A DNA stretch of 64,000 nt, from NCBI GenBank assembly GCA_030704615.1, contig CM060731.1, positions 4,154,001 through 4,218,000 of the forward strand. Reading direction: 5' to 3'. Below, one piece after another: positions 3,494-60,000 of this stretch (position 1 is its first letter; every line of letters starts with the position of its first letter). The notes below the pieces were generated by a model. The model was not told where the DNA came from and made no database searches. It saw nothing but the letters and a program-made list of their open reading frames with translations. This DNA is from Takakia lepidozioides. Lineage: Eukaryota > Plantae > Bryophyta. A program made the position numbers and the translations under genes.

Positions 3494-3618
3494 GCTTTGA
3501 ACGTCACTCCTTCCCTCTTTGCATGCTACGCACAGTGCATTGTCTCTAGTTTTGCACCAGCTGCCAATGTGCTATTTCTATATCTATAGTATACTATAAG
3601 TATCATTTCTAAGTGTCC

Positions 3619-35862: not shown

Positions 35863-36092
35863 TGTGATATATCTAGTTCCCGTTTGTGGGTATTGTATTG
35901 TACTGAGCTTGCAAAGAAGGCTACTGTTGAATCGGGGCTGTCCGGTTCTACAGATTCAGTCAAGAGTCTTCCTACTCCAATGCATACTTTGGTTGCTCAA
36001 CAGCTTCCGTACATCCCCGTCTTTGGTAGAACTCATCGAGACTTGTCGGAATGAGCATGCATTTAAAATCTGTACATTTGCTTCCTTCTGTG

Positions 36093-36181
36093 TGTCGTGC
36101 GCATACATATCGCTACACAACTACATCGCTGTCCAAACCACACCACGCATATATGCACAATAAAGTAGTCTGCCACAATCG
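36093..36181. repeat. Repeat Y, terminal copy (89 bp)
   Basis: Matches 36535-36623 with 1 mismatch. Confidence 0.95.
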
Positions 36182-36532
36182 ATAAGAAAGAACTAAACTC
36201 AAATAACAAGATAAACACAAAACACAACACCATCACTCTTTAAAATAATAGTCGAGCCACCAGAGGCACCCCAAGCTATAGGGACTCCACCCCACAACAA
36301 CCTATCATCCCTTCATAAGCACACTCAGGTTCTGAACGGTGAAGGAGCTCGGTCGTGCAGGCTCAACTCGAGAGAGATGAGCCGCACGACTGACGCTCTC
36401 GTGAAGATAAGACGGTTCAGGTGTCAAACTAAACTTGACACCTGACTTAACACTAGAACTAAATCCAAGTGTTAAATACAAATAACTAGTTTTATTCTAG
36501 TTAGTTTCACACTGTGTTTATTTAACTTGACA
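36181..36532. repeat. Repeat X (LTR-like, about 350 bp), 3' copy
   Basis: Matches 48175-48523 with about 7 substitutions and one 3-bp indel. Confidence 0.95.
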
Positions 36533-36534
36533 GC

Positions 36535-36623
36535 TGTCGTGCGCATACATATCGCTACACAACTACATCGCTGTTCAAACCACACCACGCATATATGCAC
36601 AATAAAGTAGTCTGCCACAATCG
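36535..36623. repeat. Repeat Y, internal copy, preceded on the minus strand by purine tract AGGGGGG (36624-36630)
   Basis: Joined to X through the palindrome GACAGCTGTC (36529-36538). Confidence 0.95.
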
Positions 36624-36879
36624 CCCCCCTAGCTGGTGGATAGGTCCCTCTAACTCCAGATAGCTACAAGATGTAATAGCCACAGCCGTACTAAGTCATC
36701 TATCACTGTCCCTATTGTACTCAAACTCTATAGACCAAGAGGCCGGGTACAAGAGTAGCCCCATCGTTAGTCGCCGTCTTGCAATCTGTGAACTTGAGCC
36801 AGGATCTCGTGTGTTCAAGGTCTCCTAGTAGCTTGGCCTTGCGTTTCTTGTTAGCCTTCCATGGTTGTATCCACTCCCA

Positions 36880-38200
36880 CTATCCAATGCAATGTGGACA
36901 TAACCAATCCCCATCCGGAACCATCTCAAGAGGTGGAGTCAAGCATCCCATATGCCAACCTCTCGAGCATCGATCACACACCAGCATGGTGGCTGCCCCT
37001 CTAGCAGACCCACACAACATGCACCTCAAACTTGCAGATACCACTGCCAGGTTTGGGTCAATCCTACCATCGACATTCGGAAGGTGACATGACGCACAAT
37101 TACGCACATGGTCCTTCCAAGTTATGCCATCCCGACCCTCCAAGATCAAGACACCTGAAGACAAGACCTCTCGAACCCTCAAAATAACACGTCCTGCAGT
37201 CACATCCAAGGTCGTAGGAACAGTCTGCTGCAGATAGACATAGTCGCCAGGGTTGAATCTCCGAACCCCAGGACGATAACCCCCACCACGTATGGTAGCA
37301 TACCTCAACGTATCACGATGTTGTGCAATGACAAGGTTCTCGAAAAGCCATGGGCATGACTTTCTTGAACAACTCTGCATACTGCTCACATGCACGTGCC
37401 CACACGTCCGGATTGTCAAGGTTAAGAACTGTAGCAGCTTCTCTGTGAATGGATGTAGGCAAATCCGACTCTCGGCCAAAGAGAAGAAAGTATGGTGAGA
37501 AGGAGGCAAGTGATGCTTGCTTGCTGAACCTGTAGCCCATGGCTAACCAGGGTAACTGAAGGTCCCAATCTCCTAGGTATCCCTTCTGCAAGCCATACTT
37601 GCGCAAACCCCTCTTTAATGTCTGAACAACCCTCTCTGCCAAGCCATCGGCCACAGGATGATCCCGAGAAGTGGTACGGTGGTCTACCAAGGCCTTGTCA
37701 CACAAAGCCTGAAACTCCCCCAAGAACTCTCTCCCTTGGTCCGTGAGTACCTCAGCTGGAGCACCGAATCGGCTAAGCACACAATCCAAGAATGCATACG
37801 CAGCTCCCTCACTAGCCTTATCTGGCAATGGAACCAACTCGATCCACTTGGAGAAGTGTTCCACCATCACCAACACGTACTTGTTGTGGCGCATGGTCAG
37901 TGGCAACGGCCCTGCGAAGTCAAGACTTCACCTATAGCCCAATCCCATGATCGAAAGAGGGTGCAATTGTGGAGTAAGGGCGTTGAATGAAGCACGCACC
38001 CTGTCACATACCATGCACCTAGCCACAAATTGTTGCACCTCTGTGTGCATACCACGCCACCAATACTGCCCCTGCAGTAGACTATGAGTGTGTCGCACCC
38101 CAAAATGCCCCAACTCCTCATGGGCATGCCGCACTAACCGTGCCCGCTGTGTTGGGTGAGGCACAATCCTCACTCGACCATCCTCCCACACTCGGAGCAG
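36880..38200 (-). pseudogene. Integrase (H2C2 + rve core) with C-terminal PHD finger
   Basis: HAHEELGHFG..CMVC; VMVEHFSKWIELVPL, EVLTDQGREF, GLAERVVQTLK; PHD CMLC..MLVCDRCSRGWHMGCLTPPLEMVPDGDWLCPHC at about 36883-37023. Confidence 0.92.
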
Positions 38201-38549
38201 GTGTGTCCCCTCCCACTTGAACCTCTTGGCTCGTTGTAGGATCCGATCCCTCTCCTTGGTAGTCACAGTGGCTGTCGTGTCTCCAGTACGGAAATAGTCC
38301 AACACAGCTGAATCCTCATGTATATCTTTGGCGCCACCTTGCTCATTGCTGGCCTCAGGGTCCTCAGACACTTGATCTACAATCATCCCTGTTGCAGGTC
38401 GAACCTGACCTTCCGCTGCCAAGATACACAGAAATGCAGATGCATGCCATCCGGGCACCATCTCCTCATCCGTCTCACCATGCCACCGAGCTTCAGTGTC
38501 ATCCTGCTGGCTCGTGCATGGATTGCGACTCAACCCATCTGCATTGCGA

Positions 38550-39890
38550 TTGACCAAACCTGGTCGATGCACAACCTGAAAGTCATACTCTTGAAGGATG
38601 AGTGCCCACCGTGCAAGCTTCCCCGTAAGCTTGTCTGACTCCATCAACCACTTGAGTGGTTGGTGATCCGTGACAAGGGTGAAGAGATTGTTGTATAGAT
38701 AGTCACCTAAAGTGTGCCACGGCCCACACTGCAGCTAAGCATTCTCCCTCATATGAGCTATACTTAGACTCTGCAGCGTTGTTCGAGCGGCTAGCATAAG
38801 CCACTACGAACTCTCTTCCCTCATCATCCACCTGTGTGAGCACCGCCCCAAGCCCCAGCATGCTCCAATCTGTATGCAGCTGAAAAGGACGCCCCCTGAT
38901 AGGTCGTCTCAACATGGGTGCCGAGGTCAACCTCGCCTTGAGCTCTTGAAAAGCTTGTTCTTGCTCATCTTCCCACTGCCACTCCTGGTCCACCTTGGTC
39001 AGCTTGGTTAGAGCCTTTGCAATGGCACTAAATCCCTTAAAAAACCGTCTATAATAGTTTGCTAACCCCATGAAAGCTCGAACTCGGCTCACATCCATGG
39101 GGCGTGGAATCTGTGCAATGGACTCTACCTTACTCTACTGTACCCCCAATCCTCCAGGATATATCATGTGACCCAGATACTCAATCTGGTTGTGGAAAAA
39201 CTTGCACTTTCCCGGATGTAACTTCAATCCGTGCGTCCTCAAGCGCTCAAATACCACCTGAAGGTGTCTCTCATGCTCCTCCACCGTAGCACTAAAGATG
39301 ATGATGTCATCTATGTAGCACCGAGCAAACTTCACCCCTGCTAGAATCCTGTCCATGACTATTTGAAACTCTGAAGGAGCATTTTTAAGCCCAAATGGTA
39401 AGAACCGCCACTGGTATAGGCAATCCTTCCCGTGCTCATTGATCCCCCAAAATGCCGTCTTCTGCTTATCCGCCTCCTTGATCGGCAACTGGTGATATCC
39501 GGATCGTAAATCCAAAGTGCTAAAGACCTTGGCATGCCCAATGGCATCAAAGATCTCCTCTGGTGTCGGCATAGCATACCTATCGGACTTGGTCTGACGA
39601 TTTACAGGCCGGTAATCACCGCACATACGTCTCTCCGTCCAATTGTCATAGACATCATTCTTGGCTGGCATCACAGTGGCTGAAGCATACTCTCCCCCAT
39701 ATAGCTCCACCAAACCCGCCTCCCAAAGGTCCTGAGTTCTCATCTGAATCAAGGACCTCTCCATGTCACTGTATCTATAGGGTCTCCAAAAGATTGGCGT
39801 GTCAGTAGCCAATTCAATGCGAATCTCTTGACCCTTTAGTGCTCCTAAGTCCTTCAAACTGAAGGCAAAGCAGTTCGTGTAAGCCCTCAA
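38550..39890 (-). pseudogene. Reverse transcriptase and RNase H (gypsy type)
   Basis: RMCGDYRPVN, FSTLDLRSGYHQL, LPFGLKNAP, YIDDIIIFS, YLGH; FMGLANYYRRF, LHTDWSMLGLGAVL, YSSYEGECLAAVWAV, ARWALILQEYDF. Confidence 0.95.
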
Positions 39891-40289
39891 GAACCGCCGT
39901 ATACGTCGTCTCTCTCCTCCGGTGACTATAGGTCCAACATCAGGCTCCCAGTTGTCCTCCGTGACTGCAACCTTGAGTCCAGCAGGCTTAGAGGTAGAAG
40001 ACGCGTCTCGTGGTTGCTATGCTGCAACCTCTTGAGCAGTGATCATTGCCTCCTCTATCAGTGACAATGTCTCACCCTGCCCCATCATCCCATCCTTGAG
40101 GACCTCCTCAACCCGAGAAAAATCCCCAACCTGATCCATCACCGCCGCCTTGGCTGCCAACTCATTCTGAACCTCGAGCACCTCCCACGTGTGCCATGGA
40201 TGCGGCCTGCACCTCGTGGTCCTCACCTGCTCGCCCCCCACTCGCTGCCTGTACCGTCTCGGTAGGCAGGGAGACCATGAAGGGAAGTG

Positions 40290-41290
40290 TACTCCGTACT
40301 CTGCGCTGCTCAGCCATAGCCAAGCTGATAATCCAGGTCAAGCAATTGTGATCCATTGCTTGCCCCAACACCTGACGACGTGATGCCTCAGAAAGAGATG
40401 GCACCGCCGTGGTACCAGTGGTAAAACCCATCGCCCGCTCGCGCTCGTCAGCATTGGGCTCCACTAATTGTTGCAATTGGCTATCCCACAAGAGGTCAGG
40501 TCCACTATCCCGAAAAATATGGGGTCTTGGGAAGCTGAGCAATGTAGGTAATGTTGCTCGTGGTTGACCCACCCTGTTGACCAGTGCCAAAGGCAAACGG
40601 TCATCGTGTCTCACACGTTGAGACTGCCTCCCTGTGTCCAAAATGCTATCCACTGTGAGGTGTGCTGGCCGCTACACCCCATCAAATGCACGTTTGAGCA
40701 GTGCGGGTGGCATCAAGTTAGTCCACTAGCCGTGGACGATGAGTCCGTGACCCCACTGTAGCTGCATCCAGCAACACTGCTGACCCAAGCCACGACCGGA
40801 CTTGATGCACACTGGCCATCATTCTGGCCCGAGAATCACCCATCAGTGGCACATTCTCCAAGATGTATGCTGGAGATACAGCTTGAGGAAGCTGCAAGTG
40901 GCGCAAAACCCGCACCATCTCCCAAAACAGACCCGTCCTCGAGTCTCGCAATCCATTGTCATGCCCGGCTGATGAATGCCCGTGGCAGGGCCAACCTGCC
41001 ACTACCAGATCAATGGAGCCAACCTGCTCCAAATCCTGCGCCCCCAGCAACGAAATGTCTGCTAGCAAAGCTTGTTGGTATCCACGAACTGCAGACACTG
41101 GCAACAAATCAGGGTATTGCTGTACCAACTGAGCAACATGGCATAGTGAGACGCGTCGTGCACTCTCATCCCTCTCCACATACAGGTAACGTCGAACTCG
41201 TACACCTGCCTGCAGCACTGCAGTCAATCCAGTGCTGATCCCACCAAACAAGTCGAGAAGACATATGCCTTCATCCGGGCACTGCCACAC
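40290..41290 (-). pseudogene. C5-cytosine DNA methyltransferase domain within pol (one frameshift near 40720)
   Basis: Motif I LLDLFGGISTG, II YLYVERD, III ADI, IV IDLVVAGWPC.GHS.AG, GLRDSRTGLFWE, VI YILENV, VIII HRPRL, IX ERERAMGF, X RRQVLGQAMD. Same frame as the protease ORF, separated by a single TAG. Confidence 0.9.
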
Positions 41291-41317
41291 AAGAGGTGTG
41301 GTATCCAATGGCGACAA

Positions 41318-42550
41318 CTAAGGTGGTCCTGGTGCAATCACCGCACTCTCCTCTTCTCCTGACGGTACGAAGGCCTCTACCCAGGCTTGTTGCACCCGTT
41401 TATCAGCAGCATGCTGCAAATCCTTGCTCGTACCCCACAATGGAGTGTGAGCAACCATGGCAGACAACTCCGCCGTACCATGCATGTCATCCTGCTCTGC
41501 TGAAGGTGGTACATCCTCTGCATGGGCATTGCCTTCCAGCAACTCTCCAGGCCAACTAACTGCAGCTGTAAAGGCGGCTAGTGTTGGCATCTTGCCCCGC
41601 TGGGCAGCCGCAATATCCCCAATGAATGTCACAGGGAGCTGTGCACGACGACCATCCCCTGACTGCCATCCAGGCCTGTAGGATGCTGACTCTTCCCAAA
41701 AGTCCAGGGTGAAGCCCATGGGATATAACACTGCCCCACCAACGAGGACATCGTAAGAGACCGCGTCTGTCACAATGACCTTGGCTCGCATCACTGAGCC
41801 ATCTATAGGATGATCCGGCTGCAGTCTAATGGCCAACTCACGCCATGTCATGCCCCGAGCCTGCTCTGATCCTCCCAGAGATGTCTGTATCTGGAAAGGA
41901 CAAGGCTCCATATCCGCCTCCATGAGGCCCAAACCTGCAATAGCAGCTCTGCCCAACATCAGTGGCTGAGCTCCCGAGTCTAACAAGACCCGCAGTGGCT
42001 GGTGCTTTTTGCCTGCCAGTCCACTCAAAGAGAAAATGTCATCCTGGTTGTCTAACAATACAACTCCAGGTGTCACCATGGCGCGCTCAAAGGCTGGCCT
42101 AGCTGGCAGCTCCGTCAACCTGGCAGCTGCAGCTTGCCATGGCACAGCCGTGGCAGTCTTGACCCTCAAATCTGAGGATCCCTCTGCCGCTACACCTTCC
42201 AGTAACTCCGCAGAAGATGAAGTGACCTCCCCACTCTCACAGAGTGTTGCTGCTAGTCTGAACACTGCAGCTGGTCTTACCCCCGGCGTCGCAATCATGG
42301 TTGTCGAGAACAGTGGGGCTTGACACACAGAGGTGGCTACCCCCAATAACACACCGGCTGCACTAGCCTTGGTAGCAGGTGTCAGTGATGCACGTATAGC
42401 TCTCCCCAATGGCATAGTAACCTCCGCCTCGGTAACAGTCGGGCGAGAACTAGGTGCCATGGATGGCGTCGACACTGTCTCCACCAATGTGAATGACTGA
42501 GGAAGCCTCGCTTGACGGCTTGCCTCCCCACGCTGTGGATCCAATTCCAC
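41318..42550 (-). pseudogene. Retropepsin-type aspartic protease region
   Basis: RVLLDSGAQ catalytic motif and downstream YDVLVG motif. Confidence 0.85.
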
Positions 42551-42586
42551 CTCTGCACCTCATGGCTCAGGAACTCGTGCTGCTCC

Positions 42587-44813
42587 TCAAGTCACGGCTG
42601 CAGCAGACTCTACCTGCTCTAGTGATAGTGTTGCTCCGCACATGAATCCCATGCCTCCCATATCTCCTCCCTCAGGAGCAGGAGGGGGACCATCCCGCCT
42701 GGGAGCCGGTACCACCTGAGCTGTAGCCATGGCAGCGAGCCTCTGCTCTAGCTGCTGAAGCCGGTTGGCCATGCCTTGGTCAATACCCTGACCTCCGCGG
42801 TCTTGGCTATGTTGAGCTTGCCCTTGGCCTGCACCTCGTGCCTGGCCACCTCGTCCTCTCTGGGCTGGTCCACCTCGCCCCCGGCCACCATTGTTTCCTT
42901 GGAACTGGCCTGGGCGCAACTCAGGATGCAAGTCATAACACTGGGCATCTCCATGCCCATACTTGCCACAATGCCCACACTGCAACTGTGCAGGCTGTGC
43001 TTGTGCCGACCTTTTGCCACTCTCTGGGCAATCTCTCTTGACATGGGGTCATCCACATGTCCAACATATCACCCCTGGTTGCTGTTGGCTTGCAAAAGAT
43101 GCTACTGGCCTCTGCACTTGAGGTCCCCTGTAAGCTCCATGAAATTTGGGTTGGGAAACCTTGCCCCCCTGACCACGCTATTGGGCAGTCCCTTGTGCCT
43201 GTGGGCTGGCAGCTGCGCCTTGTGCAGGCATGTCTTTGCCAAATCCAATGGTAACAACTCGCTCCTCCACCATGTTGAGCTCAATCCGCTCAGCCAACAG
43301 AAACACATCTGCTAATGTGGGTTTGGCTGCTTGTAACAGGGTTGCATCCCGCACCCTTCTCCTGAGCTCCTTGTCCAAAATTCCATACCACAACTGGATT
43401 GCCTGAGCTTCAGTAACCCCTTGGGTCACACTTATCAAGCGCCTCATACGAGTGTACGCCTCTCGCAGGCTCTCACTGGGTTTGCGCTAGAAGTCTTGCA
43501 AACTTCGCAGCTTCTCTGTCCGTACACCTTGGTAGTTCCTCCACAACTCCTGGAAGAACTCTACCACCGGGCTGAATCTAGGCACATATGTTGTAGTCGT
43601 GGGATAATGAGTAGTAGGACCTTCTGCAGAAGTACCGGCACTACTAGTGCTAGCCGTGGGAGGTATTAGTGTTGATGCCGCTACTGGTCGTGTTGTTCCT
43701 CGAGTAATGGAGACGTAGTCAGGTGACCAATACATCCTCCACTCTTCAATTTTTGCTTCATGTCCTCGCCTGAACTTGTGGTAATCGTCCATAGGCGGGC
43801 CTTCCAAATGCTGGAACAATCCCAATTCATAAATGATGAATGACCAAGACCCCGATGTCACATCGTTCTGAGAAGCCACTACGCGTGCTCACAGTATACG
43901 AAGGCCTTGCCGTGTCAGGATTTCCATTCCCACGTCCCGTCATGTCCGACGCAGCACTTGCATCCTTGTCTCTGTTAGGTGGAGGCAGCACGTATTAAAA
44001 TATCTATTCCCCCAAGGCCACATTTTGTTTACCTCTTTTTGTGAAAGCCATGTCAGCAAATGTGCTGCCGAGTCATGGGTGCAATGAATGCGCAATGGTT
44101 CATGGAGTCGTTGAGTCGACTACATATTCACTTTAATGAATAAATATCTTTATACCATTAATCGAATTAGGAAAGAAAATTTGTAGTCGCATGTGCAGTA
44201 ATTACAACCACTTGTAATTTTGGCTTTTTCAAATTTTATGTATTTACGCAATTCGTAAAATAGCCCGGAATTCTGCTACGACTCCGGAGTCGTTGACCCC
44301 ACTTCTGTCCGCCGTCTGAAATGCCCCCGTGGGCCCACATTGTCTGTTTCGACTCTCCAGTAGTCCAGTTTACTACCAAGTGGTTCCCGGAGTGGTCGCG
44401 GACATGCAGTCGAATCGGAAAATACACGAATGCTTCTAGTGCTTCCACGCCATGAATGGGGTGAACAGCTGTGGATTGCGCATCTGCTGCAAATCACACC
44501 AGCTGTCGAACTCCTAGATAAAGTCATCCAACTCGATTGTGCCCACAGCTCCAGAGTACCTACGAGGCCCCTTGGTAGCTCCATACATCTCCTCCATGTC
44601 GTCCCACAACAATGGCGAATGAAACTGCACACCTGTTGATAAAGCCTCCGAGTCTGTGTCTGACTCTGCACTTGTTGAGGGTGGAGGTGAAGGTGGTCTG
44701 AAACGAACACCTCGTTTGGTGAACCCACTCTCACTGCTACTGCCTGTAGCCGTACTCCCCTCAAAACCCTTGGGTAACTCCGTGATGACACTCACAACCC
44801 GCACCTCCCCCAC
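42587..44813 (-). pseudogene. gag with CCHC zinc knuckle, interrupted by a ~620-bp insertion
   Basis: CGHCGKYGHGDAQC knuckle followed by an RGG-rich tail. Helical gag-like segments (…PFMAWK | LFQHLEGPP…) lie on either side of the insert. Confidence 0.7.
43820..44439 (+). mobile_element. Possible non-autonomous Helitron inserted in gag
   Basis: A|TC...CTAG|T borders with no TSD. A 3' hairpin is not convincing. Confidence 0.35.
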
Positions 44814-45346: not shown

Positions 45347-45994
45347 CTACCAGACTTCTCTCAAAGTGCATCGCTCTGCATGATAGTAAGGTGTAGGAGG
45401 TATATCTATGTCCAGAAACCTGCCACTAACCTCCCGCTCACTGAACACTAAAGGTAGGGTCTGACAGTCTCTCAACTCAAAAGCTTTGAGACAGTTGTGG
45501 GTGTCCTCATTGCGAATGACTGCATCTCCTTCAAGCAGAACAAACTTTTCATTGCTAATGAACCCCCGCTCGTGGTTGCCCCGTGTAGAACGTGTCCGGC
45601 TGCAACCATGTCTGATTGCACAAACTTGTGTAGCTCCTGCTCCTCTGCTCCAGTACACCACGGCCTTGTGGCTGAACACCTTGGTCCCCGGGGCTGTCTT
45701 TGGCTGTGTTCCAAGCCTAGCTTTCACCCACTTTGGTATTTCACCTACAGCTGCAGAACTGCTGGCTCCAACAGAGTTCTGACTGTCCAAAGCAATATTG
45801 AGGCCCTCAACGCCAACTACAGCAGTTTGTTGTCTACTGCTAATGCCTGACTCCCAGTATGCAATCAACTCGTCCAATTGCTCTCCATTCAAATTAGTCT
45901 GAGTTCCTTGGGAAACATAAATCTTGTCCCTTTGTGTGCACAGGCTAAGAGAAGAGACCCGCCCTTCAATTACGTCCTCATTTCCCCCAGCCAT
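45347..45994 (-). CDS. Extra 215-aa ORF upstream of gag, unknown function
   Basis: ATG-initiated open frame, co-oriented with pol, inside the element. No recognised motif. Confidence 0.4.
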   Translation of the reverse strand: MAGGNEDVIEGRVSSLSLCTQRDKIYVSQGTQTNLNGEQLDELIAYWESGISSRQQTAVVGVEGLNIALDSQNSVGASSSAAVGEIPKWVKARLGTQPKTAPGTKVFSHKAVVYWSRGAGATQVCAIRHGCSRTRSTRGNHERGFISNEKFVLLEGDAVIRNEDTHNCLKAFELRDCQTLPLVFSEREVSGRFLDIDIPPTPYYHAERCTLREVW

Positions 45995-46849
45995 ACAAGG
46001 AGGACATCCACAGATTTATCTCTCATGTAGACCACAACAGGTTCTAGAAACAGAATTGTGGATCTTTCATAGCACACTCACACTCAAAAAATTCCATAGA
46101 TTTTTAGCAGAGTCCAAAAAACTAAAACCTAGATAGGTAGATAGATAGATAGGTAAATTTCCCCTTTCTGTAGGTTCCTGCGCAAGTTTTGGGTCAAACG
46201 GCCTTGGTAGGCCAGAGTTATGGCCAAACAGGCTCTATCTAATTTAAATTAGATCAAAGAACGAATTTCTTTTAATTTTTCATACCCAAAACGTTCTCGC
46301 CATTAAAAATTGTTCCCACGTTTTTTGCGATTCACTGTAGGTTCCCATCACGTTCAAAATACCGTGCCCTGTGAGTGCCCGAAATGGTGGAATTGAAGTC
46401 TACCAACAGAGGTTGTTGTGCAGGGATCCTCCTTCGTAGGCACACGCTTGGCAGCTGCTGCACGTCCTGCACCCCGGGTCTGCCATGCCTCTGGCGTCAG
46501 GGCTGCTCTTTCACTCTCCAGCAGCTCGCTCCAGAAAAGGGTTGGACCCTAAGTTCTTGAGGAATCAGAGATATGCCAAGAAACATAATCGTGTGGGCGG
46601 CGACAATAGTGAAGTTGATGCTGCTGAAGAAATGGAATGAGAGATGTGTAGATGGAGCAATCGATGAGTGCCCAGGTTGCAGCGGGAGTCTCTTGCTTGT
46701 CTCTATGCAAGGTGGGGCACTGATGAAGGTCTACAGCTACGCTCTAAAACGTTTTCGATCTGCACTCCATCAGGCTCCTTGTTGGCAATCGAGGTACTGG
46801 TTGCGGTCTATGTAGGTCAGATGCTGTCAAGAGGGCCTTTGAGCTGTTG

Positions 46850-47905
46850 CAAGTCTCCACTTGTGAAGGATCCTCAATGCGCTCAACTCATTCCTGATTG
46901 CGTTCTTCACCTCTTTCATGGGGATCCTACCATGTTCGAGTCCTATTGGCTGGCCCAGCCCCAGGCAACCACTGTAATCCCAGCGTGGCAAGGCATGAGC
47001 TATTTTGCTCACAAGCACAACGCCTTCATGTTTGTGGACCACCATTTGGACCAGACAATCCGCGCCTTTCACAGCTTTGTTGAGAATGTTGTCGCCGAGA
47101 GCCGCTACATTGTACTTGGAACTGGCTCGACACACTTGTTCCAAGCTTCAATTTACGCCCTATCCTCGCCCCAGTCGTCCACTCCAACGAGCATCATCTC
47201 GGCTACCCCTTATTATTCGCCGTATCCAGACTTGACAAACTTCCTCAAATCCGGGGTATTCAAATGGGCAGGAGATGCACACCAGTTTCAACAGAACTCT
47301 TCGCAAGATGCTTACATTGAGATAGTGACATCACCCAATAATCCAGATGGAACCATCCGGCATGCTGTGGTCAATGGCAGTGGATCAACAGCTCATGATC
47401 TCGCCTACTACTGGCCACATTACACTCCAATCACCTCCGCTGCTGACTTTCCCGTGATGCTCTTCACTTTCTCCAAAATCACAGGCCATGCTAACACTCG
47501 ACTCGGTTGGGCGGTTGTGGAAGATGAGCGCGATGCCATCAAATGGCGGAGTTTGTTTGATTGAACACACTCGGTGTATCCCAGGATGCACAAGCCTGGG
47601 CAACCACCTTACTCCGGACAATCATGACTGGCTACGCGCAACCGGCTGTCAAATACGGGGGACTGATGGACGCGGCGAAGCAGCCCTTCTTCCATTATGG
47701 CCACGCGGTGATGGAGGAGAGATGGAAGAAGCTGCAGCAGAAGTTGGAGGGCAGCACGCGCTTCGCTTTGCCTGATTATGACCCCTTACACTGTTCCTTC
47801 TTGGGAAAGATGTTTCGGCCCAACCTAGCTTTTGTATGGCTGCGTTGTAAGGAGGAAGAAGACTGTCAGGAATTGCTTCGCCAACACCGCATTGTATCCC
47901 GTGCA
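46850..47905 (+). pseudogene. TAR: Intronless tryptophan aminotransferase-related (TAA1/TAR, alliinase family) copy captured in the retrotransposon; frameshifted and C-terminally truncated
   Basis: HGDPTMFESYW, YIVLGTGSTHLFQA, PYYSPY, IEIVTSPNNPDG, HDLAYYWPHYTPIT, MLFTFSKITGHANTRLGWA (PLP lysine), NTLGVSQDAQ, AFVWLRC. Similarity ends after RIVSR. Confidence 0.9.
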
Positions 47906-48157
47906 AACCCAGATTCCAGTGAGCTCAAGTCACCCTTAATTTTGATGGCATTGCTCCCCTCTGGCAGGCGCATAGATTACAAAACTGCTACACCTGCTTA
48001 CTCATCCCCTGCCTTCATTGCTTGCTGCATCAGTATTGATCCCCTGCACATCTTTCTAACTAATGATTACCTGAACACAGATAATCATTTCTCTCACTTT
48101 CAAAACAAAAACCACAAGTGCTAAAACTAAACTCACCTCTGGCACTCACATATGCAA

Positions 48158-48173
48158 GCTCATCTCTCTCGAG
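48158..48173 (-). promoter_or_regulatory. Self-complementary primer-binding site next to the 5' X repeat
   Basis: 48158-48174 (GCTCATCTCTCTCGAGT) is the perfect reverse complement of 48357-48373 inside X. No TGG-type tRNA PBS is present. Confidence 0.7.
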
Positions 48174-48523
48174 TGATAAGAAAGAACTAAACTCAAATAA
48201 CAAGAGAAACACAAAACACAACACCATCACTCTTTAAAATAATAGTCGAGCCAGGGGCACCCCAAGCTATGGGGACTCCACCCCACAACAACCTATCCTC
48301 CCTTCATAAGCACACTCAGGTTCTGAACGGTGAAGGAGCTCGGTCGTGCAGGCTCAACTCGAGAGAGATGAGCCGCACGACTGACGCTCTCGTGAAGATA
48401 AGACGGTTCAGGTGTCAAACTAAACTTGACACCTGACTTAACACTTGAACTAAATCCAAGTGTTAAATACAAATAACTAGCTTTATTCTAGTTAGTTTCA
48501 CACTGAGTTTATTTAACTTGACA
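48174..48523 (-). repeat. Repeat X (LTR-like), 5' copy; reads TGTCAAG...CTTATCA on the minus strand
   Basis: Direct repeat of 36181-36532 with TG...CA ends. Confidence 0.95.
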
Positions 48524-48616
48524 CGTGCTTTTATGCTATTGTAACTTTCGAATATCTATATTTGTAAATAAAGTTTCGACCCATCAAGGATTAGATCAAA
48601 GTGTCAATAAATGCAT

Positions 48617-49107
48617 ATATGTAGCCCAAGTTTCATTCGAGAAAATATCAGCCGGTAAGAAGATGGCACAATGAAGTGGGGGCGAGTGGTAAAGGAGGGG
48701 AAGGACACACAGCCCCGGGAGAAAAAATGGGGATGTTGAGTAGAGAGGTGGGCCCGGGCTGTAGGGACACCTAGAAAGAGGGGAAAGAGAATGTTTAATT
48801 TATGAGAGATAAGAAAATAGGCGCACCATTGGAGCAGCCATAGTGGGCTCAGATTAGAGTTTTTGGTGGGTGCAATTATTGAAAACGTGTCAAATAGTGG
48901 GGTGGTTTATATAGTGGAGAGGACACGTGGGGGGTCATCTTCTGGAAGTCAACCTCTACTCAACAACCCCCTTTTCTCCCGCGGCTGCATGTCCTTCCCC
49001 TCCTCTACCACTCGCCCCCCCCCCCCCCCCCTCGCCCCCCCAACCCACTTCATCGTGTCATCTTCTTACCGGCTGACAATTTCTGGTATGAAACTTGGGC
49101 TACATAT
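48617..49107. mobile_element. Foldback/MITE with ~130-bp imperfect inverted arms
   Basis: ATATGTAGCCCAAGTTTCAT..CAGCCGGTAAGAAGATG..GTTGAGTAGAG is mirrored by CTCTACTCAAC..CATCTTCTTACCGGCTG..ATGAAACTTGGGCTACATAT. Confidence 0.75.
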
Positions 49108-51435
49108 TAACATCTAAACACCTTATGTTGCTAAATCACCTAGGTTATATCTAGTGATAAAAAATTTAATGACTGCTGTAACCACAGGTTATTAGTTTCA
49201 TATCATTTGAAGCAACCAGAACCGAAAGTTTGAAAAATACACTGGTGTCCACCTTACAAACGGAAGGCAGCCATTCCATCCCGAAATGTCACCATATGTT
49301 CCCGCATGCTTCAGCAAGAGCCTTTCTTCTTAGTCAATCCATACATTTTCTTAGGCACTTCAAATAGAGCTACTGATGAATAATCATTGGGAGATCCAGC
49401 AGTTGTAAAAACAGAAAAGTAATGTCTCAGTAATTTATATGGTTTTATAGTCATTCCAAAAATCATCTAAGGTGCATAACAAAAGAAAAAAAAGAACAAC
49501 TATCGACCAGCATTGCTCTTGAGCAACTTTCAGCGCTCATATGTGCTACCCAAGTCCAAGCACACGAGTGACTCTAGTCAGATTGCCTTGCAACTAAAAC
49601 ATGTTGTAGCAAACAGAGGAATGCAGGACCCTTTAGACGAGCACATCTCTCGATAACATGCCAACTTCATAAATTCATAAATTCCTAACAGCAAACCACT
49701 CGGACCCGTTCCCTTAGAGGTCTGTGTGTTTATGATAATTTCCTTCAAAAAATTGATTATCAATCCTCACCATCGCAACTGCGCTATATCATCTAGGTAC
49801 CTCTGGCGACGCGAGCATATCGATTATTTACGTCTCAAACCTGGAAGAAGACGTAATCTGTCCACGTTCGTGGAAAAAGCATCAAGAGGACAGTGGGAGA
49901 TTCTTATTCAAACAAAACAAAAAGACAGATGACTACTCAGGATATGTCGTGTTGGAACGGTTGTGAGATCTCTTCAACGCCTTCTTGCAAAAATTAAAAG
50001 CGAGCTGGGATTATCCGGATCATCACAGCAGTCAAGCGTCCAGCGCCATTGCAACATAATTTCTATCCTCCTTCAAAATCCCCGACGACCCTCACCAGAC
50101 CCTACCTAGAAAACACAAACATCCGTCCCTAGTCCCTACACCGTGTCTCCTGCTTAGGAAAGATAGAGAATACCCTTCGCTGAGGCGACCACTTATAGGG
50201 TTTCAGGATGCAAAGGCTCTGCGTTATTAGGGTTAGAACCAAGCCCTAAACCCGAAACGGGGAGTTCCTCTAGGTGTTCTGGTTGTAGGGGAACGATTAT
50301 CGCCTTTGGAACGGTTCCCAGGTCTCTACCCATCCAAAGCACGTTTATGTGTACTAACCCTAATTTGTGATGACTCTATGTGCTTCTTCTAACTTAACTG
50401 GCCACAAACCTCACTTGTGTCACTGCAGTTTGTGACTCCTCAGACTATCCTGTGAGGCTCTTCAATACTTGAACAATCTTCATATTCTGTCTTTCATAAG
50501 GGGTTGAATTGTTATTCAAGTCTCCAATAAGGTCACTATCCCATGAACACAAGCAGGTAGGTTTGTAAGTTGCACTTCTCCAGGGCCATGCACAGAAGAG
50601 ACTAGCACCCTCAATCTCAACTTGGGCAAGAACTGCCAAGACCAACCCTCCGTCAGCTCCTCATTGGACTGGTTACTTCATTCTTTCACCTCTAACGGTT
50701 ATATGTACATATATAACACCAAACAATCTCAATCTCAATCTCAATGCTACACACTCCCACTCAATACTCCTCTCCTCGACTTCATCATCACATAACTACA
50801 GTTCATCCATTCATACTACAATCCCCTCACATCTCATCCATTCATATTATTTCAATCCTAATCGAGGCCACTACCTATTTTAGCCCCTACGAAATTGATC
50901 ATTACTTTGGCTTGTTGGGCAAGCAAGATCCTACGGGCAAGTGTAATGCTTCACCAAGGATCAGGGGAGGGTGTGCAAATCGAAGTCTTTGCCATTAGCT
51001 ACGCATGCATCCATATATGCTTCAATATCATTCTCATCCCACACAACCAGCCTGACAATAGCAATCACCCCATCCTCACAAACCCTATTGGATTCTTGAC
51101 AATGGCCACATTTGATCCGCAAATATTAATATATGATCTAACCTAGCTCTCCTACTAAAACACATGTCTTACGTAGAACCCTCCCAAGCTAAATTGGTAT
51201 GTGTCCACCACTACAATGACCCACAAATATCCGCTAATTTCCTCGTAAACCTAAGCAACATACTAAAATGCCTATTCGGCCTAGTAACTGCAACGGTGCA
51301 CACACCCACAATCCCCCCTCCCTTAATATCATCAACCCAAATAAGCGATGTGACACATCCGCAACCGCTTTGGGAAAACATCAACCCCATCACATTCCCT
51401 CCCACCATCCGAATACTACAACCTTGAACCCTTAA

Positions 51436-52475: not shown

Positions 52476-52645
52476 GACGACCAGCATGTAGCCCAGTGGT
52501 AATGGGCACATACCACGTTGGATGTGGTTGTGGGTTCAAACCACGGTCTGGTGTGTCATGAAGGTGTCCACCTTCCTAGCGGAAGGCAGTAGCCCTCGGG
52601 GTGAAGTGACTCCATAAGTTACGCTTCCTTCGGGAGGCGTCATAC
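52476..52645 (+). mobile_element. tRNA-derived SINE
   Basis: A-box TAGCCCAGTGG and B-box GGTTCAAACC. 13-bp TSD TTTAATCATCCAC (52463-52475, 52646-52658). Confidence 0.85.
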
Positions 52646-52710
52646 TTTAATCATCCACCGCAATGCATTTACATAGACGGCTCCCTGAAAGACGGACATG
52701 GGGGATATAT

Positions 52711-52889
52711 AAAAAATATATATATATGATGCCTTCCGAAGGAAGCGTAACTTATGGTGTCTCTTCACCCCGAAGGGCTACTGCCTTCCAGCTGAAAGGT
52801 GAATACCTTCGTGACACACCAGACCGTGGTTTGAACCCACAACCACATCCAACGTGATATGTGTCCATTACCATTGGGCTACATGTTGT
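52711..52889 (-). mobile_element. Second copy of the same SINE, inverted, with a (TA)n tail
   Basis: Reverse-complement match to 52486-52644. Approximate TSD ATGGGG(G)ATAT. Confidence 0.8.
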
Positions 52890-53567
52890 ATGGGGATATG
52901 GAACATACAACACCACTAGTAATACACGAACTAGGACTTCGCGTTGCTCCGCACTACTAGCGACGAGATCTGAGAACTATGTTCAATTTTTCACAAAAAA
53001 GGGGTGGGTCATCCCCACGGTGTTACATTCAGAGATCCCGTGTTTTGTTTTTTTCTGGAAGAAAAATGGCGGATCTGCATTTCAACATTCAATTTTCACA
53101 AGCCACATCAATCAATAACAACATACCCAAATACCCTTACATTCACTGTATGAACTTTCAAGCATCCACCATGGGATTGGATCTTGGTGGGTTAAGGCTA
53201 GCTTTTGACAATATTCATGCAAGTTCATCAAGGGCTCCATCCAAAGCCACACCACGAGAAACAAACAAACATGTCCAAATTTAAGATGCTGAACAAACTT
53301 GTGCACAAGGCTGCCCCTCTCATCAAGCTCATTAAAATTCGTATTCACTTCCATCTTCAAGCTTTGGAGAAGCTCCACCACCCAAACCCAAAATTAGGAC
53401 AGCACCAGAATCAGTAAAACATCACCCCTTCAGTCAAGTGCAATTGTGGGCTGATTTCCCACCTATGCCGGGTAGACCCCACTATCAGGAAATGGTGGAT
53501 GGTCTGAGTAGCTACACAGATCAATGAATGAAGCAAGACACTAGCATCTTTCCAAGAAAACATCCTT

Positions 53568-54863
53568 TCACCAGTAATCACCACAAGAACAAATCCCATC
53601 TTCAAAGTGGTGGAAAGTAGTTAGCGTCCCATACAACAATTGCTCGGCCAACAATCTTTGAGATGAATTTGGTGGAGGTGTGGTAGTCTCCACACACTCG
53701 AAGATTCTTGATGAGTCGTGTTGATCAGCCCAAAACCGATGGCCAACTTCTCACTGTGGTGGCAAACAGAAAATTCATTTCCTCCACATCATGCAGTAAA
53801 AAACGTGTGTCAGGCATATACCCCGCCTCCATCTTCTCCCCAGACAATCTTCTCAGCTCAGACAATCTTCTCACCTTTGCAGTATCATCCCACCTGCCAG
53901 CTGCAGCATAGATATTTGATATAGCACCACATAAGTCGCGACATCCTGTTCATCCCACTTGATGATATATGTTGCCACACATTCAGCCATCTCCACATTG
54001 CCATGGATTATGCAGGCACCAAGCACAGCCTTCCACACCACAACATCTGGATTGATTGGCATTTTATTAATTAGATCCACTGCCTCATCCAGTTGTCCCG
54101 CACGTCCAGAAGGTCCACCATGCAGCCAAAGTGTTTTACTGTCAGATTGAATTGATACCATGATCTTGAATCAGGAATCGAAGTAGCGTCTACCTTCATT
54201 CAGAAGGCCAGTGTGGCGCATGCTTTTCCAGGGCTGCCAGGCTTGCACACGAACTACAAATGCACAGAAACTTGATGTGGTCGGGCTTCACCCCTTCCCC
54301 CATCATTTGATCACAGGTCTCCAAAGCCTCCCTACCACGTCCCTGCTGTGGATATGACACCACATCTCGTTCAGCCATAGTGTTGAAAACTCCCTTCGCA
54401 TCCTTAATGCACCCACGCTTGGTCAATCCTGCCAACATTATATTCCACGTGATCAAAGATTGTTGAACACTTGGTGAGCATCCATGATTCTCCTGCACTT
54501 AACATACATGTTGACAAGGGTGTTGAGTAGAAAAACATTTGGCGTGAATCCACTTTGGATAATGTGAGTGTGCACCTGTTTTCCAGCTTCAAGGCCTTTC
54601 ATCTTGATGCACTTATGCAAGAGACAGACATACGTATCTGAATCTGCTTCAAAATGCTCTGAATCTGCTGAAATGCCTCCTTGGTTTAAAGTCTGTAGAG
54701 CCTCTTTCAGTCTGCCTGCCTCACAAAGCACCTTCACATGCCCAGAGGTGCCAGAAGAGGCATTGTGGACTCCCTCTCTTGATCCTCTTCCAGAGGCTCT
54801 GGTCATGGTTGAGGCGCCTGATTTTATCAACTGTGCCCCTCTTGGATGAATCTGGACCCACAC
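53568..54863 (-). pseudogene. Fragmentary PLS-class PPR-E-DYW (RNA-editing factor) pseudogene
   Basis: [92 protein letters not shown]. Many internal deletions. Confidence 0.88.
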
Positions 54864-55693
54864 TCTATCCCTTCTCCTTCAGCTATCCATGCATCTGCAC
54901 AAAGCATGCATTCATCTTTTCCCTTGCTGCTAGCAGCTGACAAATGATAACCTAGGAAACACCCAATCACACTAGTTCCTATGCTGAATTGCGTCTGCTA
55001 CTCTCTGTCATCTAACATGGATTCAATTTTTTGCCTCGGTTGTCCCACCATTGACTGGGGTCAACAAAGTATTCATTCCACACCTTCTCTCTGTTAATTG
55101 TTTTTGGATACTTTCCTATTATCACATTGGCAGTATCATGTCAAAGTCACTCCAAACTAGATTCACTCAACCAGCTAACTTGCAGAATTCAACATGGAAA
55201 TTTAGGGCCGACTCTGACAAGAGAGAAAAACAGGATGCAATGTGTTGAAGAAGGTGCCTTCATTAACAATGCCTTGTTCTATCATTTGTGCCGCTGCCGC
55301 TGCTGTTTCCAGTTGACCATCTACCCAACAATATTTGACAGCCACAAAAGCTAATTCATCAATTGTATAGTGGGAAAATAGACTCGTGATCTTGCAAGAC
55401 CTTGTCCATGTACAAATATCATAGAGTGTCTACTGCAGCCCCCTGTTCTGAGAGACATTCTCTCCTGCGTGAAATCAGGGACTATCACACAGCGGGATGG
55501 ATCAACAAATAGGACAATTGCTTATGCCTCACAAACAACATGCATTGAAATTCCAGTGTCAACCTGATATAGATGGACCTACAGAGACAATTTGCTGCTC
55601 GCTTCATTTGTTGCTGCAAAAAGCAGTCAAGATGACAAGAGATTTTGGGAACCAGAAAACAATCTCAACAAGTCAATTGTGGTCATAACATAC

Positions 55694-55792
55694 ATTTTTC
55701 TAGTCTCTGCCATATTTCCGAAATGCTTGATAGAAGAGCTCCAGGTCCTCTTTGTTCCAGGGAGGTCCAAGCATGTCCGACAATTTGCGCTT
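55694..55792 (-). pseudogene. Captured ALWAYS EARLY (ALY/LIN-9) N-terminal SANT/Myb exon
   Basis: [31 protein letters not shown], flanked by AG acceptor and GT donor. The stop falls at the conserved Trp. Confidence 0.75.
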
Positions 55793-57036
55793 CTGATCAC
55801 CAGCCCGCCCACTCACCTCAGTCCCATAACTAGCATTCAAGCAGCATCCAAAATTGCTACAAATGACTGCAAATTTCACATCTGAGACAAAGTCCAACCC
55901 CTGTAACCCTTTGTCTCTGGAATCAAATCTGTTCACAGATGTATACCAAAAGGTCATCTTTTCTTCTTGGAGGAATGGTTCTGGAATCAAACCATGCAAG
56001 CTTCAGAATATGACAAGGTAAATTAGACAACCTGTCTAAACAATTTTTTTACTGAATAAAGGCCCTTCACTTTAACCACTTCCCTCACTACAGAATGAGG
56101 GACTAAAGGGTCCTTCAGATCCCGATCAACTAGTAAATCTCAGGGACACTAATACACAGATGGATTCCTATAACACATATGGTTATATCCAATTGCATCA
56201 TTATCACCACGTTTGATAAAACAATGGTCACAAAAATAATGGCCAAGAAGGCTGAAACATGGAAACAGAGCAACCTTCAGCTTTGAATGTCAGTCTCACA
56301 GTTGCATTTATTGTTTCCAGTGAACACGGTTATAGAGAGGTTATGGCAAACAGACAACAATTACAATCTAGTCAATGTAAGATTAGGTTTGAAACTTGGG
56401 TTTAGCTTCAAGCAGATGTGGGACTTTTGCAACCAGACACAACCTGACATACCCTTCGTGCTCATGGAAAATCAATCATGGAGACTCACTGTGCGGGTCT
56501 GAAACAAGGAAGTAAGGTGTAATCTACGCTGCACTTTTCTTCTTTCCCACCCAATCACGAGTGAAAGCTTCCGATTCCGTCTGCAAGAAACTCCTCCCCA
56601 TTTGTTGTCTTTTCGAATCATAGGTAATCTGGAGCTTGAAATCCGGCCCTTTTGGATGAATCTGGACCCACACTCGATCCCTGCTCCTTCAGCTATCCAT
56701 GCATGTGCTTGCAAGGTGAACGATGGCGGAAAACGCAGAGCTCCTGCAGTTCAAGAAGATCAAGATCCGGGCATTGTGGGCAGTTCCAAAAACGTTGGCG
56801 CGGCGATTTCTATTAGCCTATTTCGCGCGGGCCGTTCGGGCAGATTCCAAAGAAATTGACGACGACAATGACCTGGCTACGATGACATGGCGATGATGAC
56901 GTGTCTACGATGATGTGGCGGTGATGACGTGTCTACGATGACGTGGTGACAAAACGTGGCAACGATGACGTGGCACTATGGCACCCTATTCCTGCTCTAC
57001 ACTAAACTAGCTTCCGACCTTCGGTCGTCGCTAGAA

Positions 57037-60000
57037 CTAGGGCTTCGCGTTGCTCCGCACTACTAGCGACGAATTCTGATAACTACGTTCAATTTTTCAC
57101 AAAAAAAAGGTGGGTCATCCCCACGGTGTTACATGCAGAGATCCCGTGTTTTGTTTTTTTCTGGAAGAAAAATGGCGGATCTGCATTTTAATGTTCAATT
57201 TTCACAAGCCGCATCAACCAATAACAACATACCCAAATACCCTTACATTCACTGTATGAACTTTCAAGCATCCACCATGGGATTGGATCTTGGTGGGTTA
57301 AGGCTAGCTTTTGACAATATTCATGCAAGTTCGTCAAGGGCTCCATCCAAAGCCACACCACGAGAAACAAACAAACATGTCTAAATTTAAGATGCTGAAC
57401 AAACTTGTGCATAGGGCTGCCCCTCTCATCAAGCTCTTTAAAATTCGTATTCACTTCCATCTTCAAGCTTTGGAGAAGCTCCACCACCCAAACCCAAAAT
57501 TAGGACAGCACTCTGATTTCCATCCACTGTTGCCAGAATCAGTCAGAAATCACCCCTTCAGTCAAGTGCAATTGTGGGCTGACATCCCACCTATGCCGGG
57601 TAGACCCCACTACCAGGAAATGGTGGATGGTCTGAGTAGCTACACAGATCAATGAAAGCGAGACACTTGCATCTTTGCATCAACAGTACATGATGGTCAT
57701 CTCTCAAGAAGGGTGGATGGTCTGAGTAGCTACACGGATCAATGAAGAAGCAAGACACTAGCATCTTTCCAAGAAAACATCCTTTACACACCATATCACC
57801 AAAGAACCATCCCATCGTCAAAGTGGTGGAAAGTAGTTAGCGTCCCATACACAATCGTTCGGCCAACCATCTTTGATTTGGTGGAGGTGTGACAGGCGCC
57901 CACACAGTCGAAGATTCTTACGAGTCGTGCTGATACAGCCACACCAATGGCCTTGGTGGCAAAGAGAAAATTCCTTTCCTCCAATCATCAAAACGTGTGC
58001 CAAGGCACATACCCCGCCTCCTTCCTCGGCCCACAATCTTCTCACATCTTCATCTTCTCAGCTCGCATGGATTTCATTAATTCAGGATCAAGCCTGTCAT
58101 CTGCTCATTTCTAACTGCTCTGACCTTCATCATTCTTCTCACCTTTGTAGTATCATCCCACCTGCTAGCCGCAGCATAGATGTTTGAATAGCAACACATA
58201 AGTCGCGGCACGCCTGCTCATCCCACTGAGGATAAGATGTTGACCATACATTCAACCATCTCGACATTGCCATGGATTCTGCAGGCCCCAAGCAAGGCCT
58301 TCCACACCACAACAATTTGATTGGCATTTTCTTAATAATCAGGTCCACTGCCTCATGTACTTTGTCCCGCTCATCCAGAAGGTCCACCATGAACCAAAGG
58401 CTTACTGCGGGGTGACACCATGATCTTGACTCAGGGAAATCGAAGTAGCGTCTTCCTTCATTCCAGTAGGGCCAGTGTGGCTGCATAGCAAGAGAACACG
58501 CATATTTAAAGTGATACTGTCCGGCTTCAAGCCGTTCTTTTGCATTCCTTCAAATAGTTGCAGGACCTCCCTATGACAACCATGCTGGGCATATCCACGA
58601 CACCACATATCATTCAGTCACATTGTCAAATACTCCCTTTGCATCCTCAATGCACCCACATTTCGTATACCTGTTCACCAGGGCAGTGTCCAGAATGACA
58701 TTTGGTACAATTCCAGCTTTGATGATGTCACCATGCAACGCCTTTGACCCTTTTTGCCCTTTTCCAGGGCTGCCAGGCTTGCACAACATTGCAAATGCAC
58801 AGAAACGTGATGTGGTTGCACTTACATTACTACCCGTTTCCCATCATTTGCTCATAGTTCTCCAGGCCTCCCCTTCCCCAGGCCTCCATCCCACGCCCCG
58901 CTGTGCATATCCTGCAAACATGACGTTCCATGACGCCAAATCTCGGTTAGCCATATTGTTGAACACTCCCTTCGCATCCTCAATGCTCCCACATTTGGCG
59001 TACAATTCCAGCTTTGGCGATGCAACCATGCACCTCTTTGCCAGCTTGCAAACGCACAAACACGTGATGTGGTCGGGCTTCACCCCTTCCACATCATTTG
59101 CTGATAGCCACGCCCAAACAAAGAAAACTGATGATGTGGACTCTAGTGAAGAAATGGTGAGCAACCAAGTAAAAGCCAACACATAAGTTGACAAACCTGC
59201 AGCTTGTTTGACTTCTGGAACCGTCGGCCACACCTGTACTGCCATGTCACCATGGACCTCTTCGCCCTTTTTCCAGAGCTGCCAGGCTTTCACACGCATT
59301 GCAAATGCACAAAAACGTGATGTGGTTGGGCTTCACCCCTTCTCACATCATTTTCTCATAGGTCTCCAAAGCCTCCATCCTGCACCCTTGCTGTGCATAC
59401 CTGCAATCATTGCACTCCACGACACCACATCTCGTTCAGCCATACTGTCGAACACTCCCTTTGCATCCTCGATGCACCCACATTTGACATACATGTCCAC
59501 CAGGGCAGTGTTGAGCAGAATGACATCGGGTACAATTCCAGCTCTAACGATGTCACCATGGACCTCTTTGCCCTTTTCCAGGGCTGCCAGGCTTGCACGC
59601 GCATTGCAAATGCAAACAAACGTTATGTGGTTGGGCTTCACCCCTTCGCACATCATTTGCTCATAGGTCTCCAAAGCCTCCATCCCGCGCCCTTGGTGTG
59701 CATATCCTGCAATCATCACACTCCACGACACCATCATTCAGCCATACTGTCGAACACTCCCTTCATTCATGTCCACGAGGGTATTGTTCAGAATGACATT
59801 TGGTACAATTGCAGCTCTGACAATGTCGCCATGGACCTCTTTGCCCTTTTCCAGAGCTGCCAGGCTTGCACACGCATTGCAAATGCACAGAAACGTGATG
59901 TGTCGGGCTTCACCCCTTCCCCCATCATTTGATCACAGGTCTCCAAGCCTCCCTACCACGTCCCTCCTGCTGTGGATATCCTGCAAGCATCGTGTTCCAT

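Follow-up and report, generated by a model that had tools for sequence, protein, structure and literature searches.

The window, a 64,000-nt (64-kb) stretch of Takakia lepidozioides DNA (GCA_030704615.1, contig CM060731.1), contains a broken Ty3/gypsy element that spans positions 48523 to 36093 on the minus strand, where all of its parts lie unless stated otherwise. Its left end is a repeat, A1 (48175-48523, 349 nt), which begins with TGTC and holds a weak TATA-like motif, TATCTT (48395-48400), as a putative promoter, and a predicted self-primer at the presumed 5' end of the transcript (48357-48373). A probable primer-binding site (PBS; 48158-48174) adjoins the repeat and starts where the identity of the two A copies stops. 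The leader then carries a captured fragment of a host gene of the alliinase/TAR (tryptophan aminotransferase-related) family (46668-48124, plus strand; PF04864, profile positions 4-216 and 224-331 of 363), which is antisense to the element, frameshifted and without an intron-sized gap. An extra open frame of 222 aa (45347-46015) precedes gag (42587-43888), which is in pieces, has no Pfam match and is assigned from its position, its Cys/His motifs and its conservation in relatives. The protease region (41318-42559) has an LLDSGA motif and likewise no Pfam match. A C5 cytosine methyltransferase domain in pol follows (40718-41317; PF00145, E 3e-13), then reverse transcriptase (RT; 39135-40016; PF00078, E 6e-34), RNase H with the integrase zinc finger in two pieces (37928-39134; PF17919, PF17917, PF17921), the DDE integrase core (37313-37927; PF00665, E 6e-13) and the C-terminal part of the integrase, which ends in a PHD finger (36880-37542; PF00628, E 8e-11) and has no chromodomain. 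Beyond a polypurine tract, TAGGGGGGC (36623-36631), come repeat B1 (36535-36622, 88 nt; ends GACA), the dinucleotide GC, repeat A2 (36181-36532), in which the primer segment is again intact, and repeat B2 (36093-36180; ends GACA), the right end of the inserted element. The palindrome GACAGCTGTC at the B1/A2 border (36529-36538) is a putative integrase attachment site. Candidate target-site duplications flank the element, CACG on the left (48524-48527) and CACA on the right (36089-36092), and match at 3 of 4 bases. A tyrosine recombinase was absent from the 12 minus-strand frames of at least 120 aa scanned in the element, and an rve integrase was found.

This is a fairly young yet broken copy. 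Stops and frameshifts split gag-pol, and we call the copy fairly young because A1 and A2 differ by 7 substitutions in 349 aligned bases and B1 and B2 by 1 in 88. Contig depth reaches 1e5-1e6 over the element compared with ~60-75 for the flank contigs, a contrast that indicates a many-copy family, depth being no copy number. Over the alliinase/TAR fragment depth is only hundreds to thousands, compared with 1e5-1e6 over the remaining element, suggesting that few copies carry it. The 222-aa frame is at high depth in the family; it has no Pfam or Atlas match, is assigned to no family, and has no counterpart in the 13 relative loci displayed.

The window holds several other repeats. Just outside the left end of the element, at 48608-49116, is a MITE-like element with 93-nt inverted arms (80%), whose depth is high, in other runs too. 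Remnants of CACTA/En-Spm transposases (DUF4218, Transposase_21, Transposase_24) occupy 712-7080, together with a 404-aa frame with a NIF phosphatase domain. There is a 100-bp tandem array at 8362-8782, a long inverted repeat with 120-nt arms and a 45-nt perfect core at 52482-52888, and, over 9 kb at 52928-62268, nested repeats of 270-305 bp with duplications of 4-6 kb.

The sequence-only reading of this DNA had claimed that the 16 nt immediately downstream of the 5' repeat, there called X, pair perfectly with a segment inside that repeat, and this is correct: minus-strand 48173-48158 (CTCGAGAGAGATGAGC) is the exact reverse complement of 48373-48358. One added Watson-Crick pair, A48174:T48357, extends the helix to 17 nt around a loop of 182 nt, and the opposite end gains one G-U pair. 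The limits given for X and the PBS shift slightly, since the copies of X are identical up to 48175, which allows a 17-nt PBS beginning at 48174. X itself is a real repeat, our A, but only part of the functional LTR, which is B+X. The 16-mer that partners the PBS occurs twice in the 64-kb window, in the 5' and 3' repeat copies, and the PBS 16-mer once. Pairing of more than 11 nt by a segment starting 0-5 nt past the repeat end arose in none of 20,000 dinucleotide shuffles of the repeat, and 17 nt was reached by none of 3,000 shuffles of the window repeat. Seven perfect inverted repeats of at least 12 nt, with arms within 400 nt, exist in the whole window, and the PBS helix is the third longest. 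The sequence from 48373 to 48120 forms a structure closed by this helix (z -3.25, none of 200 shuffles being equally stable), although that segment was picked for containing the helix and the z score is not independent support. The orientation of the helix suits minus-strand strong-stop synthesis.

No TGG-type tRNA site was said to be present, and TGG is indeed absent from the first 8 nt past the 5' repeat in the window element, as in 7 of 7 5' ends checked. The 64-kb window contains no tRNA gene, and Rfam models over 47900-48700 gave three matches, all with E >2 and far under gathering scores, and no known ribozyme. The copia element in the window (20330-25193, plus strand) served as a control; it has ordinary TG...CA LTRs, a TGGTATCAGAGC primer site and a 5-bp target duplication, CCATC. 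Because this neighbour has the ordinary TGGTATCAGAGC site, the missing tRNA site is specific to the Gypsy element.

An RT alignment was used to fetch relatives, as 80 metagenome, 67 viral and 60 genome loci. The viral contigs held distant RTs only (best 27-44% identity), and one close member, L148, was found among the 60 genome loci. The L148 contig is filed under a cyanobacterial genome, likely as contamination. Eight distinct relative 5' ends could be read, L006 being left out as the same insertion as L005; these all belong to the shallow part of the clade, the algal members being unreadable. The A and B repeats were also unreadable in short or decayed loci (L002, L012, L014, L016, L017, L019, L021, L025, L032, L033, L037). 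L080, taken at first for a split-repeat element, was rejected: it carries a chromodomain, has ordinary LTRs and a TGG site, and sits within a small repeat. The repeats of L037/L038 and of L023 are nested insertions and not A/B repeats. More distant loci had domain arrangements of their own. L076 (1738-5982), a distant Ty3 element, has a protein-tyrosine phosphatase domain at the end of pol (PF00102, E 9e-79), and in the Ty3-type elements L068 (1903-6546), L069 and L070 the integrase lies ahead of RT, L068 also having a SCAN domain.

The window element and its relatives form four families whose A repeats do not align to each other (blastn across three families, with L148 left out, gave none beyond short low-complexity alignments). 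Within a family the PBS pairs with its own repeat, over 17 nt in the window element, 17 nt in L005 (22 with G-U pairs), 13 nt in L027 and 13 nt in L148; across families pairing is 9 nt or less in 12 of 12 pairs. The published rule for predicting self-priming asks for at least 10 nt that start 0-5 nt after the 5' repeat and are complementary to that repeat (PMC6317226), and such pairing is present in the window element (17 nt) and in 6 of the 8 relative 5' ends. The runs, with the number of 3,000 shuffles that reach them in brackets, are 10 nt in L001 (15), 17 in L005 (0), 13 in L027 (2), 12 in L047 (0), 18 in L064 (0) and 13 in L148 (0). Below this mark are L015 with 8 nt (60) and L008 with 6 nt (1,738), misses that we attribute to decay: L008 has a deletion through the partner in A1, and its PBS still pairs over 12 nt with sister copies, while L015 pairs over 8 nt with A1 but over 12 nt with its own A2. 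That four families have different PBS sequences, each pairing with its own repeat only, supports the self-priming that had been proposed from the window alone and shows that the complementarity is conserved among relatives. Compensatory change is also seen within one family. Two paired positions of L015 differ from the rest of its family, in the PBS and likewise in A1 and A2: its PBS reads ATTCGAAG and its primer end TTCGAAT, where the family has ACTCAAAG and TTTGAGT. A double change of this sort is what copying of the primer into the PBS, or selection for pairing, would produce; the two compensatory changes come from one copy and are CpG-type transitions.

The paired segment has a regular place in the repeat. 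Its 3' end falls at nt 164-186 of A and is followed by TGA(G/A) in 15 of 19 A copies, as judged by pattern matching, and at nt 195 of A in L148. A TATA-like hexamer starts 41-44 nt before the primer 3' end in 11 of 12 rows (a raw count over 12 of the 20 available A copies, from four families), in the form TATAAA or TATAAT at 42-43 nt in 7 of the 12 and as TATCTT at 44 nt in the window. The usual distance from TATA box to start site is 25-35 nt, and, combined with the position of the hexamer, this spacing points to a primer of ~10-17 nt. A TATA-like motif at a fixed distance, weak in the window itself, fits transcription that would start in A1 about 30 nt past the box, near 48368-48373.

These features make it quite probable, in our view, that the element primes its own reverse transcription: an RNA that starts in A1 would pair by its front with the PBS, a cut would free the primer, and ordinary LTR synthesis would follow. 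The first 12-17 nt of the RNA would fold onto 48174-48158, where the pairing is seen and its use presumed. The Tf1 primer is cut by RNase H, and by analogy we propose the same cut here, after 48357, which would free a 3' end pointing into the repeat. RT could then copy the 182 nt of A and jump to A2, and LTR synthesis would yield a linear cDNA that carries B+A at each end and runs from the purine-tract border to the primer-site border.

The best surviving alternative, though an improbable one, is that the RNA terminates within A2, at the second copy of this segment (36366 in the window), and that its 3' end, rather than the 5' end, primes on the PBS. A2 keeps the primer segment whole (17 nt), sequence alone cannot tell the two copies apart, and a free 3' end would require no cut behind a capped 5' piece. 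However, the TATA-like box lies ~30 nt before the start of the segment in three families, as it would for a start site. Moreover, the region common to both RNA ends would shrink to the primer, which should make the first strand jump hard, and a poly(A) tail would need to be removed.

If the element does prime itself at the PBS, the repeat borders gain a meaning. In all four copies that have A1 and a whole A2 (window, L005, L015, L027), the start of the helix is 0-1 nt away from the position at which A1/A2 identity is lost, and past this point A2 continues into B2. In three families the first base of B2 is, within one base, the base that follows the purine tract in B1. Because both borders coincide there, the A/B junction is the primer-site border joined to the purine-tract border, and we take these borders, from their sequence, to be the two ends of an ordinary linear LTR cDNA with LTR B+A. 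In L148 (6938-7427) the 7 nt CACTTGA are common to the purine-tract/B border and the A/PBS border.

The inserted ends lie elsewhere. The left end, TGTC, and the right end, GACA, are the two halves of the palindrome GACA-NN-TGTC at the B/A border, which in the form GACAGCTGTC is present in the window, L001, L005, L010 and L148. The termini TGTC...GACA are accompanied by perfect 4-bp duplications in all three testable relatives (L005, AAGG; L027, TTTG; L008, TACA). The layout A-coding-B-A-B is seen in the window, L005, L015 and L027, and L148, a collapsed contig, does not show it. The 3' end B-A-B is clear in 9 of the 15 loci that hold a B repeat; the other 6 have a contig end, an insertion or decay there, or stop at B1. 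None of seven 5' ends has B upstream of A1. L008 (4733-13372) has the form A...B, flanked by a perfect 4-bp duplication and lacking a second copy of either repeat; it could stem from a one-LTR circle, from cutting of the two palindromes or from subsequent recombination between B1 and B2.

Since the primer site fixes where reverse transcription starts, the inserted ends would differ from the ends that ordinary reverse transcription makes. The layout suggests integration from an end-joined cDNA whose left internal palindrome is opened by the integrase, a reading to which we give about an even chance. The joining of the cDNA ends would produce the A/B junction that is seen inside every A...B-A-B copy. 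The DDE integrase would then use the internal GACA-NN-TGTC of the left LTR, presumably cutting so that the two central bases are dropped, and the inserted product would be A-PBS-gag-pol-PPT-B-A-B, with the termini and the 4-bp duplication as observed. Against end joining, a circle would hold two identical palindromes, yet B precedes A1 in 0 of 7 5' ends, so that end joining would need a bias towards one of them. In the L005 family, moreover, the A/B junction is in register and free of indels in all four copies, a cleaner joint than one would expect from host end joining. One possible explanation, which we consider rather unlikely, combines self-priming with a templated joint in which the A2/B2 junction of the RNA itself would act as a splint or bridge, as has been proposed for DIRS-type elements; this could explain both the use of a single palindrome and the in-register junction. 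B1 and B2 are not closer to each other within copies than between copies in the L005 family, and L031 is the one clear case of closer within-copy B repeats in the L027 family.

The same observations bear on a second alternative, slightly less probable than priming from the transcript's 3' end, in which the helix is structural (in packaging, dimerisation or as a DIRS-like internal complementary region) and reverse transcription is primed elsewhere, for instance at the RNA 3' end in B2, with the ends rebuilt from a template, a route suggested for tyrosine-recombinase elements with split repeats. The layout of the repeats is the PAT/Ngaro one, the in-register junction of the L005 family fits templated inheritance over sloppy end joining, and the use of one palindrome only would also be accounted for. 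What such a role leaves unexplained is that the repeat border lies exactly at the helix start and at the purine-tract border in three families with unrelated repeats, a coupling that priming at both sites would produce and that would not be kept if neither were used. Half-tRNA priming exists in plant copia lineages, and a host tRNA, half-tRNA or tRNA fragment could be the primer here, with the self-complementarity incidental, but this is very unlikely: the site has no TGG start, and a host primer does not explain why four unrelated PBSs each follow the repeat of their own family. An inverted repeat arisen by chance, or a single rearrangement in this copy, such as one linked to the captured gene that begins ~35 nt past the PBS in few copies, has next to no probability left given the 0 of 20,000 shuffles and is already largely refuted by the relatives, where three other families have the same geometry with a PBS and partner that share no sequence with those of the window.

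The window element appears to belong to a clade of green-plant Gypsy elements. Those of its RT relatives that bear a species name come from Calypogeia fissa (77-79%), Marchantia polymorpha and Klebsormidium nitens (47 proteins), and many of these carry PHD and some methyltransferase domains. Among the loci, L005, L008 and L022 have the PHD finger, and the C5 methyltransferase is also in L001. In an RT tree of 28 rows the clade is separate from chromodomain-bearing and other Ty3 rows with support 99/98, the Pfam chromodomain being present in only three of the five rows labelled 'chromo'. The clade also stands apart from these rows in a larger tree of 130 rows, made by a quick search with 8 short rows dropped and 57 caulimovirus-like rows thinned. 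The AU test did not reject union with the chromoviruses (p-AU 0.065), and the trees are without a named Tf1 or Tcn1 row. From these trees, an origin of self-priming independent of Tf1/sushi is likely. The spacing between the second D and the E of the integrase core, usually 35 residues, is 34 in all 27 matched cores among proteins P0001-P0046, one fewer.

The closest described element is KnitGypsy-Dnmt3 of Klebsormidium nitens, a Gypsy element whose pol includes a DNMT (de Mendoza et al. 2018, PMC5890265) and whose repeats are arranged as in DIRS (A-coding-B-A-B) according to the legend of Fig. 4 in that paper. Like it, the window element has a C5 methyltransferase between protease and RT and A-coding-B-A-B repeats, and in these traits it matches the KnitGypsy-Dnmt3 kind. 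In addition, the K. nitens protein P0045 falls inside the element's RT clade (99/98), P0045 being a partial protein without a DNMT match whose identity with KnitGypsy-Dnmt3 is assumed. Unlike KnitGypsy-Dnmt3, the window element is in the land-plant branch, with Calypogeia and Marchantia as named RT relatives. The term 'self-priming' is absent from the main text and three text supplements of PMC5890265, where the word 'primer' appears once, in the PCR sense, and the text takes up no primer site, no purine tract, no target duplication and no PHD finger. Within the open literature searched, neither self-priming nor an internal attachment site is reported for the KnitGypsy-Dnmt3 family.

Self-priming, demonstrated in Tf1, is a common trait of the Tf1/sushi group, which is described as having chromodomains and a three-duplex 'pretzel' (text of PMC4600332, PMC6317226 and bioRxiv 10.1101/2022.12.06.519325). 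As in Tf1/Tf2, Tj1, the Tf1/sushi group and Tcn1, the PBS of the window element adjoins the 5' repeat and complements the predicted 5' end of the RNA, and, as in the Tf1/sushi group, there is no tRNA site and a TATA box lies ahead of the primer. The window element differs from Tf1/sushi in that it has a PHD finger, and no Chromo match, in place of the chromodomain, and in that its inserted ends lie inside the LTR. In a crude check for the pretzel the central duplex was present, and side duplexes were matched by 10 or fewer of 300 shuffles in only 2 of 12 rows. Where the target duplication of Tcn1 is 5 bp in 100% (text of PMC6317226), that of the three testable relatives of the window element is 4 bp. 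The label 'Tf1/sushi-type' given earlier to the element therefore holds for the mechanism and not for family membership, given the absent chromodomain and the 4-bp duplication.

Among plant elements, self-priming is predicted for 83% of Tcn1, 89% of TAR and 12% of all LTR elements surveyed in the text of PMC6317226. TAR, a plant Ty1/copia lineage, resembles our case in being predicted to self-prime in plants by the same 10-nt rule, but it has the copia domain order, a 5-bp duplication and ordinary LTRs (PMC6317226), a separate origin. PAT, Ngaro and VIPER have split direct repeats, A1...B1-A2-B2, for which the text of PMC7192593 reports a proposed circular intermediate. The window element shares this split-direct-repeat layout (PMC7192593) yet has a DDE integrase, no recombinase match and 4-bp duplications, and its PBS and purine tract mark the A/B junction. 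Phygy and Selgy are described as having a tRNA-Trp or tRNA-Ala primer site and no extra pol domain; they share only the 4-bp duplication with the window element, which has no tRNA site and carries extra pol domains.

Altogether, self-priming was known in other clades and the A-B-A-B layout had been noted once in print; a link between the primer site and the permuted layout was not found in the literature searched. What this analysis adds is a further clade that seems to self-prime, without the Tf1/sushi chromodomain and with strong covariation across families, and a fixed point for replication from which A...B-A-B can be read as joined cDNA opened at an internal palindrome. The combined proposal, that an old green-plant Gypsy clade self-primes apart from Tf1/sushi and integrates end-joined cDNA opened at an internal palindrome, is tentative, and we hold it a shade less probable than its integration step taken by itself. 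On that proposal, and with the same reserve, the end-joined form would be a two-LTR circle or a concatemer, and the ends made by reverse transcription would finish inside the copy. LTR finders that take the two A repeats as LTRs would be expected to mis-bound such elements. Two-LTR circles are normally regarded as by-products, and, if the proposal is true, this clade would provide a natural test of whether a DDE integrase takes an internal site resembling a circle junction as its normal substrate.
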